From the sequence record PQ330092: a DNA stretch of 64,000 bases; one strand, written 5' to 3'. This document shows, one piece after another, positions 14,848-16,636 of the stretch. The notes under the pieces were generated by a model. It saw only the letters and a list, made by a program, of their open reading frames with translations. It was not told where the DNA came from and did no database searches. The stretch is from Escherichia phage JP4. Each line of letters opens with the position of its first letter. The stretch's first letter is position 1. Both the position numbers and the translations under genes were made by a program.

Positions 14848-15649
14848 GAAATAAAAGGGATTGGACTATGGCAAAATGCGTAGGGGGCTAAAGGGCGGGT
14901 AACCTAGTAGGCAGAGGAAGTCTGCCGTACTTTGTAGTTTCCAAGCTCCTTTTCCATTTTGCAAATTACATCAAATGTAATCAAAAGTAATCACGCAATG
15001 ATTAGTACTGAATTATTACTTTCACCTTAATTACAATTACCCTTTTACCCTTCGGGGTAAAATTCAATTACCCCTTGAGGCTCCAGCAAAAAGTTGGTTA
15101 GTACTCCATCCTAAATCTCGATCCTAAAAATTTTGGAGTACCTATGAAATAAAAGTTGGATCTTCGAAAGTTGAAATTTACGTTGGGACGTTTATGATTT
15201 GTGGGATATAATGATGTTTGTAGACGGGTAGTTCTCAAGAATATCAGTACTGAATGGTGAAAGAAAGTTATTGACATTATGATTCAGTACTGTATAATGT
15301 TCTACATAGAGAGATGAGTTGCTGCGAACAATTCATTTACTCTACCTCCTGTCGTGAGACAGTACAGAAAAGATAGTTCCTCCTGTGGTGGTACATCTTT
15401 TTGAACCTCATATGAAAATTGTAATAACAGTACTGATATTAACAGAATGGTGTCAGTACTGATTTTAATCTAAAGCATTATGCCACCAGCACAAGCTGGT
15501 GGATTCCCTCTAACAGTATTCAGTACTACATGATAGTCTTCATCCTCCTAGGGTAACATAGTGAGGGCTATGATGGCAGTACTGAATACTCCCTTTCAAA
15601 AGATAGATCTATGGTATAGTACTGACGGATTTTGGGTGTAGTTACCCTG

Positions 15650-15815
15650 GATGGATTTTGGACGTAGATATGTCTAGCCCTCCAGAAGTCTGGAAGTAAA
15701 GATGGCTATCCATCTAGACGGCTAAACGGCTAGATTTCTGGATGGCTGGATGGCTAGACGTTTGGACGGCTAAACGGCTAGATGGTTACACGTCTGGAAG
15801 TATAGACGGCTAAAT
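15650..15815. repeat. Iterated short repeats (GGCTAGAC/GGCTAAAC/GGATGG/GTCTGGAAG units)
   Basis: At least 7 GGCTA(G/A)A(C/T) units within about 120 bp inside the 1.7 kb non-coding hub. Confidence 0.6.
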
Positions 15816-16429
15816 CAAAATTTTATTTTGTTTTTCCAATAGTTCCCCTACCGCGTGGGGATAGTTTCCCCGCAGTATCTGTAGTTAGATTTTTCTGAAT
15901 CTGGAATCATTATCTTATAAACTGGGGGCAATGTCAACGACCTGGCCGGATATTTTTAAAAATTTTTTCAGTACTGAATTTTGGGCGTAACTATGCACCC
16001 GGTGGGCTTGAGTCTTTCTCGACTTGATGGAACTATTATACAGTACTGGAAAAATAAAGCAATACCCTGGATGAAAAAAGTTTTAATTAATTTGCTTGCC
16101 ATCCTGGGCCGGACTATGGTACTATATTTCAGTACTGAGAAAGTGCGTTTACCTGCTAGGGTGCGGGAGTGTATCCTTTTTTTATATCTTGAATTTTGGG
16201 CGTAATTCCGCACCCTCTGGGGTTTCCGCTTTCTCGCGTCTATGTAGTAATTATACGCTTTTTCAGGATCAAGTCAATACCTAAAAACAAAATAATTGAA
16301 AATAATTTAACGCGTTTAAACGGCCTGTAAAGCCCTGGAATGATTGGAATGGTGCAAATGTATAGCTTATGTGTATTAATGCGTTAGAATGCGTCTGAGG
16401 CCGTTTTATGGGGTGTAGTAGTGATTTGG

Positions 16430-16522
16430 TTGATTCAGTACTGAATAATAGTACTCCTATATAGAAAGATAGTTCCCCTGGATTGATTCAGTACTGAATA
16501 ATAGTACTCCTATATAGAAAGA
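16430..16522. repeat. Two exact 40-bp direct repeats separated by 13 bp
   Basis: TTGATTCAGTACTGAATAATAGTACTCCTATATAGAAAGA x2, immediately upstream of promoter 16543-16571. Confidence 0.8.
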
Positions 16523-16542
16523 AAACTATTTTAAAAGTATTT

Positions 16543-16571
16543 GTAGAAAGTACTTGCACCGTACTGATAAA
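16543..16571 (+). promoter_or_regulatory. sigma70-like promoter CTTGCA-17-TATAAT preceded by 2 x 40-bp direct repeat
   Basis: Read directly. Confidence 0.65.
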
Positions 16572-16636
16572 AGCGTATAATGTTTTACATCGAGAGCGGG
16601 AACACTTCCCGCTACACATTAAGAGAGATTAAAACG

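Follow-up and report, generated by a model that had tools for sequence, protein, structure and literature searches.

The stretch of DNA analysed here (the window) comprises 64,000 nucleotides of Escherichia phage JP4 (sequence record PQ330092). Our subject is a region of 1.7 kb within it (14907-16630), which a preliminary description made from the letters alone had singled out as a gene-free hub crowded with repeats and had tentatively linked to a replication origin, a terminase recognition (pac) region or a genome-end boundary. All the features named in that description are present, in place or a few bases off, and the region proves to be the first 1,731 bp of a direct terminal repeat (DTR), situated at the physical left end of the phage genome; we refer to it as the leader. 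A megablast search with 14907-16630 matched 43 phage records, 31 of them at 95% identity or more, and these 31 all represent PBECO4/121Q-like jumbo coliphages of the genus Asteriusvirus or their close Salmonella relatives. The phage of the window is itself an Asteriusvirus (PBECO4/121Q-like) jumbo phage. Within the leader lies an array of 8-bp units, for which we propose below a role in binding the host protein MetJ.

The physical genome end and its leader

The features that delimit the repeat and the non-coding stretch are the following (the vertical bar in a sequence marks the cut).

1-14905 (+): final 14,905 bp of a DTR copy, forming the right end of a genome unit; no base differs from 20115-35019, and in relatives the last 606 bp map to the DTR end
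14905/14906: right physical end joined to left physical end; unit-length genomes read ..CAGTACTGATATGCCACTA|AGTAGGCAGAGG at the left boundary
14906-35019 (+): complete DTR of 20,114 bp, left-end copy, with about 49 small plus-strand genes
14906-14931 (+): conserved terminal sequence AGTAGGCAGAGGAAGTCTGCCGTACT with a small hairpin, GGCAGAGGAAGTCTGCC (14910-14926); invariant in 11 of 13 aligned Asteriusvirus genomes
15043-15062 (+): hairpin with a TTCG loop and an 8-bp stem, TTTTACCC-TTCG-GGGTAAAA; dispensable
15081-15200: best-conserved block of the leader, containing AAAATTTTGGAGTACC and GATCTTCGAAAGT; 96-98% column identity in 13 relatives
16430-16535 (+): 53-bp tandem repeat, two copies, each with TTCAGTACTGAATAATAGTACT; exact 40-bp cores; one to three copies in relatives
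35019/35020: right boundary of the DTR, ..GGGTAACCT|TAGCGAC, its CT|TAG being the reverse complement of the left-boundary CTA|AG

Positions 1-14905 are identical to 20115-35019, at an offset of 20,114 and with the first mismatch at 14906, and the repeat period is therefore 20,114 bp. It also follows that the large repeat of the preliminary description is real and that its "copy 1" ends at 14905, the 1.7 kb believed to come after it being itself the start of the repeat unit. That another DTR copy precedes the leader is due solely to the head-to-tail joining of two genome ends in this sequence, and a second copy of the leader is located upstream, outside the window. The contiguous 14905/14906 junction is absent from every record of the phage collection; in all of them the 606 bp to the left of it and the 595 bp to the right sit about 20 kb apart. 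Six records (BAU.Micro_ELP-22, CRJP21, E9.1, fEgEco12, BF17 and vB_Ec-M-J) start at the base equivalent to 14906, two more (G17 and WPEC3) start at 14905 in reverse orientation, and the annotation of vB_Ec-M-J gives "Direct Terminal Repeats" as 1-21525. For fEgEco12, a DTR of 20,993 bp was determined with PhageTerm and confirmed by restriction digests (PMC13070987), and the termini mapped in that study coincide with 14905/14906. Because the record ends of eight relatives and the verified termini of fEgEco12 all fall at this position, it is the physical genome end, just as the boundary reading of the preliminary description had it. The DTRs of relatives measure 20,107-21,525 bp with unchanged start and end points, and the context of the boundary is kept in nine Asteriusvirus records and in the Klebsiella phage RaK2.

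Short sequences at the cuts themselves are shared by more distant phages. The sequence straddling the left cut, ..(C/A)AGTACTGATATGCCACTA|AGT.., is kept across genera and is identical in RaK2, and AAGTC(G/T) followed by C or GC is found 10-20 nt from the record start in Klebsiella phage Muenster and Erwinia phage pEa_SNUABM_12 (hereafter pEa12). The right boundary reads ..AACCT|TAGCGAC in the window and ..AGGCT|TAGCAC in Muenster, whose left boundary is likewise CTA|AG; in both genera, therefore, CTA|AG and its inverse CT|TAG enclose the repeat. Viewed in the context of a concatemer, both DTR boundaries share this one inverted pentamer, in Asteriusvirus and Alcyoneusvirus (the genus of Muenster and RaK2) alike, and no extended motif common to the left and right boundaries was found beyond it. 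Such a framing, a 5-bp motif in two genera, appears to fit a Watson/T7-type model in which staggered nicks would be introduced on opposite strands 20,114 bp apart and subsequent fill-in synthesis would duplicate the repeat. The window contains no terminase gene. In unit-length genomes the gene-free zone continues leftward past the DTR start for about 260 bp, in a part outside the window that carries repeated GAATGATTCAGTACTGA and AGGAATG(T/C)GCACG units.

The first gene of the DTR starts at ATG 16637, a position that aligns cleanly across relatives, and the 1.73 kb before it is without a conserved open reading frame (ORF). In relatives, stops or frame changes disrupt the four largest ORFs of the leader (59-81 aa; GTG or TTG is the start codon of the three longest), and the records of PBECO4, 121Q, ph0011, A4, slurp01 and vB_Ec-M-J have no annotation in this region, so the earlier impression that the 1.7 kb holds no convincing gene is borne out. 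A 44-aa ORF with a TTG start (16196-16330) is open in most relatives and interrupted in CMSTMSU only. A search of 14000-17500 with the Rfam 15 covariance models returned no match at E≤1, and ARAGORN found no tRNA or tmRNA.

Across 13 aligned Asteriusvirus genomes, conservation of the leader amounts to 80-99% and does not fall below that of the coding DNA downstream; an apparent 1.2-kb insertion in some relatives was rejected, as it consists of extra matches to the repeated downstream promoters. The hairpin with the UUCG loop noticed earlier is present and is dispensable, because CMSTMSU has lost it and ph0011 has it twice; A4 and EJP2 have divergent versions. Likewise present are the exact 40-bp direct repeats (16430-16469 and 16483-16522, spacing 53). 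The AAAATTTTGGAGTACC and GATCTTCGAAAGT sequences of the best-conserved block are found again in the Erwinia phage, 100-170 nt into its record, and the layout as a whole is found outside Asteriusvirus in three further genera and in members of Mimasvirus. It is seen in Muenster (PhageTerm DTR 1-20030, first coding sequence at 1304), RaK2 (gene-free gap of about 1.5 kb) and pEa12 (first coding sequence at 1793), and also in Yersinia phage fHe-Yen9-04, Serratia phage BF, Pectobacterium phage CBB, Cronobacter phage GAP32 and phage XbC2. What is kept across genera is the left-cut sequence, the position of the promoter P1 and a module at 16035-16256 with both leftward -10 boxes and the arms of an inverted repeat (all detailed below), and the array together with both its flanks is kept in Erwinia, Yersinia and XbC2. 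The region is a conserved mosaic, not a single device: a non-coding leader at the physical end of the DTR, conserved in its architecture.

Five sigma70-type promoters without an ORF are predicted in the leader (P1, P-3, P-2, P+2 and P-1), all belonging to an early promoter family that is distributed over the whole DTR. The scores given below refer to a matrix built from 29 DTR gene promoters.

15271-15298 (+): P1, early promoter without an ORF, TTGACA-16-TATAAT, its -10 box abutted by AGTACTG; 12/12 consensus, matrix score 35.7
15304-15470 (+): predicted non-coding P1 transcript of about 165 nt with four hairpins, including a conserved CUGUC-GUGA-GACAG
15428-15461 (+): terminator-like hairpin, its 14-bp stem formed by two inverted CAGTACTGA sites, followed by a weak U-tract
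15909-15937 (-): P-3, leftward promoter-like site facing the array, TTGACA-17-GATAAT; 11/12 consensus
15974-16066 (-): module copy 1, leftward P-2 plus leader; -35 box 16062-16057, extended -10 box TGTATAAT 16042-16035, matrix score 17.0
16096-16125 (+): P+2, rightward promoter-like site, TTGCCA-18-TACTAT
16131-16240: imperfect inverted repeat of 110 bp, arms GAGAAAG..AGGGTGCGG / CCGCACCCT..CTTTCTC, between the convergent P+2 and P-1
16189-16281 (-): module copy 2, leftward P-1 (TTGACT-16-TATAAT, 16277-16250) plus leader; 11/12 consensus

P1, correctly recognized in the preliminary description as a promoter with no ORF downstream, has hexamers that are invariant in all 13 relatives and positional counterparts at nt 281-300 of Muenster and nt 267-296 of pEa12. 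Reading rightward, it would make a structured RNA of about 165 nt, the predicted fold of which (minimum free energy -48.7 kcal/mol, z -3.9) includes 9 pairs with compensatory changes among 9 sequences; a 16-aa ORF inside the transcript is not conserved in relatives. The stem at 15428-15461 is invariant, and EJP2 has an 8-nt insertion in its loop. P-3, P-2 and P-1 would fire leftward. The two 50-nt elements reported previously correspond to the leaders of P-2 and P-1, and the repeat that contains them is in reality longer, running for about 93 nt through the -10 and -35 boxes. The -10 box of P-1 is conserved in Muenster and RaK2, and the counterpart of P+2 in the Klebsiella and Erwinia relatives is a canonical promoter of the family. 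P+2 and P-1 would converge on the 110-bp inverted repeat, which has a predicted folding energy of -43.3 kcal/mol (z -4.7 on the plus and -4.0 on the minus strand) and is the only part of the leader that blastn detects in Klebsiella phages (66-71% identity); in the Erwinia phage its arms have changed concordantly, from GAGAAAG/CTTTCTC to GAGAAAT/ATTTCTC. An intrinsic terminator at 16158-16177 was also considered and is doubtful, because the T-run is missing in the Klebsiella and Erwinia relatives.

The 8-bp array and its match to MetJ operators

The array and its flanks occupy the middle of the leader.

15628-15650 (+): left flank of the array, GATTTTGGGTGTAGTTACCCTGG; counterpart at nt 640-660 of pEa12
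15668-15811: array of 18 contiguous 8-bp units in a single register, with the grammar of MetJ operators (metbox consensus AGACGTCT)
15832-15855 (+): TTTTCCAATAGTTCCCCTACCGCG, flanking the array on the right, with GC hairpins after it; almost identical in Erwinia, Yersinia and Mimasvirus XbC2

The preliminary description had counted at least seven short repeats here; the repeats exist, their true extent being 18 units with a strict 8-bp period. Units 1-9 read ATATGTCT AGCCCTCC AGAAGTCT GGAAGTAA AGATGGCT ATCCATCT AGACGGCT AAACGGCT AGATTTCT and units 10-18 read GGATGGCT GGATGGCT AGACGTTT GGACGGCT AAACGGCT AGATGGTT ACACGTCT GGAAGTAT AGACGGCT, and the left flank is related to the GAATTTTGGGCGTAA heads of both 93-nt modules. 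The units were scored with the metbox weight matrix and acceptance rules of PMC3228920 (Table 3), according to which a MetJ operator consists of at least two abutting 8-bp boxes, each reaching at least one-quarter of the consensus score and together at least the consensus score. The core run at 15700-15811 comprises 14 consecutive passing boxes with 102.8 bits and is the sole outlier of the window; when single weak units are allowed, 16 of the 18 units pass (120 bits). Shuffled versions of the 49 kb of non-redundant sequence (200 in number) gave at most 3 boxes and 22.9 bits, and the top runs in a positive control, 8.5 kb of Escherichia coli K-12, were those of metJ/metB (4 boxes, 31.2 bits) and metF (4 boxes, 24.9 bits). 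Information per unit amounts to 6.7 bits in the array compared with 6.2-7.8 bits at metF and metJ/B, and base use agrees with the metbox at seven positions, second-choice bases included. Among relatives, the number of units (18, 19 or 24) and their order change, with the grammar retained. The array shares with the E. coli operators the abutting 8-bp boxes, the CT|AG-type junctions, the preferred and second-choice bases at seven of the eight positions and an equal information content per box, and it differs from them in having 18 boxes (the control operators have 4 each), in lying off methionine-gene promoters and in the frequent G at position 6.

MetJ occurs only in five orders of gammaproteobacteria (Enterobacterales, Pasteurellales, Vibrionales, Aeromonadales and Alteromonadales), and in two blastn searches seeded with the array 82 of 83 and 66 of 67 matched records came from MetJ-bearing host orders, the sole exception being XbC2. 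A metbox-like array is present in all RaK2-like genera except the Klebsiella one, Muenster and RaK2 being devoid of any metbox run. In XbC2 (OP292654.1, Mimasvirus), the first 1000 nt include a leader rich in AGTACT and an array with at least 14 metbox-like units. The same grammar also appears in the T7-like phages PGT2 (Ermolevavirus; nt 38-109, near the genome end) and KPV811 (Drulisvirus; 50-140 nt from the right end), as well as in T5-like phages of Vibrio (Thalassavirus), Aeromonas and Providencia, where it is located in the T5-type untranslated region beside DnaA boxes. In the Vibrio phage Pontus (T5-like, Thalassavirus), for example, the array occupies 468-603, between at least 8 GAATTTGCACCT-type repeats and two DnaA boxes of consensus sequence at 704 and 754.

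The slot of the array is filled differently in Alcyoneusvirus. We counted as Fur-like any site with at least 14 of 19 matches to the Fur-box consensus GATAATGATAATCATTATC and found 7 such sites in Muenster (780-1325) and 7 in the equivalent part of RaK2, inside the conserved module, with a mean of 0.2 in shuffled sequences. Elsewhere, there are four in the untranslated region of T5 (9650-9720) and one each in the Erwinia and Yersinia phages; the leader of the window has neither Fur-like nor DnaA boxes. The presence of Fur-like boxes in the sister genus supports the notion that the slot holds sites for host repressors.

We put the probability at roughly 55% that the region is a terminal leader mosaic in which the array, as predicted from its sequence, loads host MetJ, and that it is not an iteron-type origin. 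The 18 abutting units would load a long cooperative filament of host MetJ together with S-adenosylmethionine (SAM). The most likely function, and the one we favour, would be that of a sink, mainly drawing MetJ off the host met regulon and so raising the supply of methionine and SAM; the dose would be 18 boxes per DTR copy and 36 per virion genome, and would rise with phage replication. No promoter of a methionine or SAM gene underlies the array, and no met gene is present. A second possibility is that the array serves as a protein cap or roadblock near the DNA end, between P1 and P-3; as the array keeps to genome ends, such a cap or roadblock would explain its placement better than a sink.

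Several observations speak against this interpretation or temper its parts. At position 6, which corresponds to the best-conserved position of the metbox, about half of the array units have G, as opposed to 10% of natural metboxes; a box with G at position 6 is found in the metF operator. Unlike natural met operators, the array overlaps no promoter (none was found in 15668-15811). One carrier, XbC2, is labelled a Xanthomonas phage, a genus that should lack MetJ, and so either its host label wants checking or it is a counter-example. That the array recurs close to DTR boundaries suggests its location to be important, and a pure sink would not call for this; the search for a phage-encoded binder covered 64 kb of a genome of about 350 kb. 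As regards the other parts of the mosaic, the promoters and the P1 RNA have been predicted from consensus matches and folding, the U-tract of the terminator-like hairpin is weak, the covariation in the P1 RNA comes from 9 closely related sequences, and the CTA|AG symmetry concerns a 5-bp motif in two genera only.

Best placed among the alternatives, though in our view improbable, is the idea that a protein encoded by the phage (for instance one of the ribbon-helix-helix type, or a small terminase subunit) binds along the array, which would mark the concatemer junction for packaging, the likeness to MetJ operators being convergence or coincidence. Ribbon-helix-helix proteins as a class bind abutting short repeats, an example being omega of pSM19035, and the systematic deviation from the metbox at position 6 would suit a binder of this kind, as would the location of the array, which in every lineage examined is either within about 0.04-0.8 kb of a DTR boundary or inside the distal untranslated region of T5 type. 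It has to be set against this, however, that the array unit occurs in three phage families with unrelated terminases, that no ribbon-helix-helix, MetJ-like or Arc-like domain was detected in the 49 DTR proteins, that the array is 760 bp from the cut, and that the Fur-like boxes of the sister genus argue for host factors. The same distance, and the same occurrence in families with unrelated packaging enzymes, count against the earlier suggestion that the repeats are a pac site recognized by terminase; the repeat blocks flagged at that time lie 0.35-1.6 kb from the packaging cut, and it is the short motif kept across genera that straddles the left cut, with CTA|AG inverted at the right one.

A replication origin, the first of the roles proposed in the preliminary description, seems to us quite unlikely, whether the repeats are taken as iterons for an initiator or the orphan promoters as a means of priming through R-loops (compare T4 oriF/oriG and T7 phiOL). 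Promoters without an ORF, an inverted repeat kept across genera between two convergent ones and an AT-rich run of 24 bp at 15812-15835 would all befit an origin, and the left non-coding end of T7 is annotated with a promoter-linked secondary origin. On the other hand, the array is made of contiguous 8-mers and not of iterons of about 17-22 bp, the leader contains no DnaA boxes (TTWTNCACA), the 49 DTR proteins yielded no initiator-like domain, cumulative GC skew takes no turn at the leader, and the array is also found in small T7-like phages, whose origins depend on promoters of the phage RNA polymerase.

Comparably small is the chance that the leader is mostly a set of decayed early transcription units that have lost their ORFs, together with slippage repeats, serving as a mere spacer that protects the first gene from end erosion: the orphan modules are indeed recognizable copies of the promoter-leader family of the DTR, the 53-bp repeat varies between one and three copies and the TTCG hairpin has been deleted or duplicated in relatives, yet the leader is conserved within the genus as well as the adjacent coding DNA is, several of its blocks persist between genera sharing little other DNA identity, and the grammar of the array units is retained despite turnover of their order.

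The reading in terms of MetJ may be extended, more tentatively, to terminal-repeat phages of at least three unrelated families, namely RaK2-like jumbo myoviruses, the T7-like Ermolevavirus and Drulisvirus, and T5-like phages of Vibrio, Aeromonas and Providencia. These would carry near the genome end a MetJ "super-operator", several times the length of any control operator, in place of which sister lineages have Fur-like or DnaA boxes, and their ends might thus capture metabolite-sensing repressors of the host. Capture would either strip these repressors from the host regulon, so that methionine/SAM or iron supply is de-repressed, or build from them a cap or roadblock on the DNA end.

Genes of the repeat and the AGTACT code

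Downstream of the leader, nearly each gene of the DTR (16554-35019) is a transcription unit of its own, with AGTACT at the -35 box and/or abutting the -10 box. The first of these is as follows.

16554-16999 (+): first early transcription unit; -35 box at 16554, -10 box 16576-16581, hairpin in the 5' untranslated region 16592-16613, ATG 16637; matrix score 43.0

Its 120-aa protein has no Pfam match, and such matches are few among the 49 DTR proteins (16637-34864), comprising a ParE-like toxin, a DksA/TraR zinc finger, a GNAT acetyltransferase, DUF7249, DUF7247 and DUF7217. The DTR genes mostly have an upstream gap of 50-110 nt with a promoter of the one family, which lies in A-rich DNA and consists of AGTACTTGCAA or ATTGACA as the -35 element, 17 bp, and (AGTACTG or GCG)TATAAT, followed downstream by a GTTTTACATC leader, a GC hairpin and a Shine-Dalgarno sequence. 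The matrix identifies 64 plus-strand sites in the window, all within DTR copies and none past 36 kb; the leader has members of the family at 15293 and 16576 on the plus strand and at 16040 on the minus strand.

The window contains 56 matches to CAGTACTGA on both strands, compared with 0.40 expected, of which the plus strand has 8 in the leader and 9 in the remaining 18.4 kb of the DTR. The palindrome AGTACT was observed 198 times as opposed to 16 expected (12-fold over) in the 49 kb of non-redundant sequence (14906-64000), and its density is 6.6/kb across the DTR, coding DNA included, versus 9.9/kb in the leader. Since AGTACT is dense throughout the DTR, the CAGTACTGA sites, earlier reported as numerous in the hub, are one face of a region-wide code; they are numerous there indeed, and they belong to an AGTACT pattern that extends over the DTR and other blocks and is not specific to the leader. 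A longer palindrome, TCAGTACTGA, is concentrated in the leader. Beyond the DTR, AGTACT comes in blocks, at 40-43 kb (4-8/kb) and 50-64 kb (2-7/kb), and is missing from 35-40 and 43-50 kb; most copies outside the DTR fall within coding sequence. AGTACT may be an operator for a regulator of the early genes. As an explanation of AGTACT and of the units with CTAG, TrpR and LexA operators were rejected on inspection, because their sequence and half-site spacing do not agree.

Just past the DTR, at 35117-36362, the ORFs overlap and measure about 65-75 aa, intergenic promoters and AGTACT being absent, and 121Q has a comparable run of ORFs of about 61 aa immediately upstream of its DTR. In the unique region, several diverged direct repeats at 51023-54240 (115-218 nt, 62-78% identity) point to a paralogous gene family, and some copies of AGTACT there fall within a conserved ..EEYYFQ.. 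coding motif.

Comparison with known genome ends and implications

The leader resembles the left end of T7 in being a gene-free stretch from the physical end to the first early gene (at 925 in T7) and in combining a short-repeat array (SRL in T7) with promoters for the host RNA polymerase, leftward ones among them (A0 in T7, where A1-A3 are the strong early promoters). The SRL unit, however, is CCTAAAG with an irregular spacing of 12-13 bp and no metbox score, whereas the array of the leader is strictly 8-bp periodic, and the T7 array lies just outside a 160-bp repeat, that of the leader inside a 20-kb one. The untranslated "injection stop" region of T5 offers a second parallel: it measures about 1.2 kb, is part of a long terminal repeat, is crowded with repeats, inverted repeats and palindromes, is better conserved than the adjoining ORFs and holds sites for a host protein (DnaA boxes). 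Its place is the inner (distal) repeat end, after the genes, whereas the leader is at the outer end, before them; the leader, at the proximal repeat end and without paired DnaA boxes, shows no injection stop signal of the T5 type, and T5 itself has no metbox run. The T7 SRL and T5 repeats were accordingly rejected as arrays of the same kind, since their units differ and they contain no metbox runs. By analogy, the leader would be a non-coding control region at the end of a terminal-repeat phage, like the T7 left end and the T5 region, with a unit sequence common to neither.

A gene-filled long repeat is also known from the Bacillus phage SPO1, the terminal redundancy of which is a host-takeover module; its numerous small early genes each have a strong promoter of host type upstream. 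The two repeats differ in host, promoter sequence and repeat content, and to our knowledge SPO1 has no comparable non-coding leader or array of repressor sites.

The long terminal repeats of RaK2-like jumbo phages have been published, and in the papers we could search the conserved non-coding leader and its parts are undescribed; searches of the literature on T7 SRL/SRR arrays and on MetJ sites or boxes in phage ends returned nothing relevant. While the region belongs to a known kind of control region at terminal-repeat ends, the MetJ reading is its new and testable part. The exact position of the end and the promoter family should be of help in orienting, annotating and engineering phages that are therapeutic candidates, and the CTA|AG symmetry provides a concrete, testable cut-site model for the duplication of a 20-kb repeat. 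If the array does bind MetJ, short-repeat arrays at the ends of terminal-repeat phages would gain a testable role that searchable papers have left unaddressed, and a common reading would become available for the Fur-like boxes of the Klebsiella relatives and the Fur-like and DnaA boxes of T5. Infection would then be linked to the methionine/SAM sensor of the host by plain DNA, with no phage protein involved.

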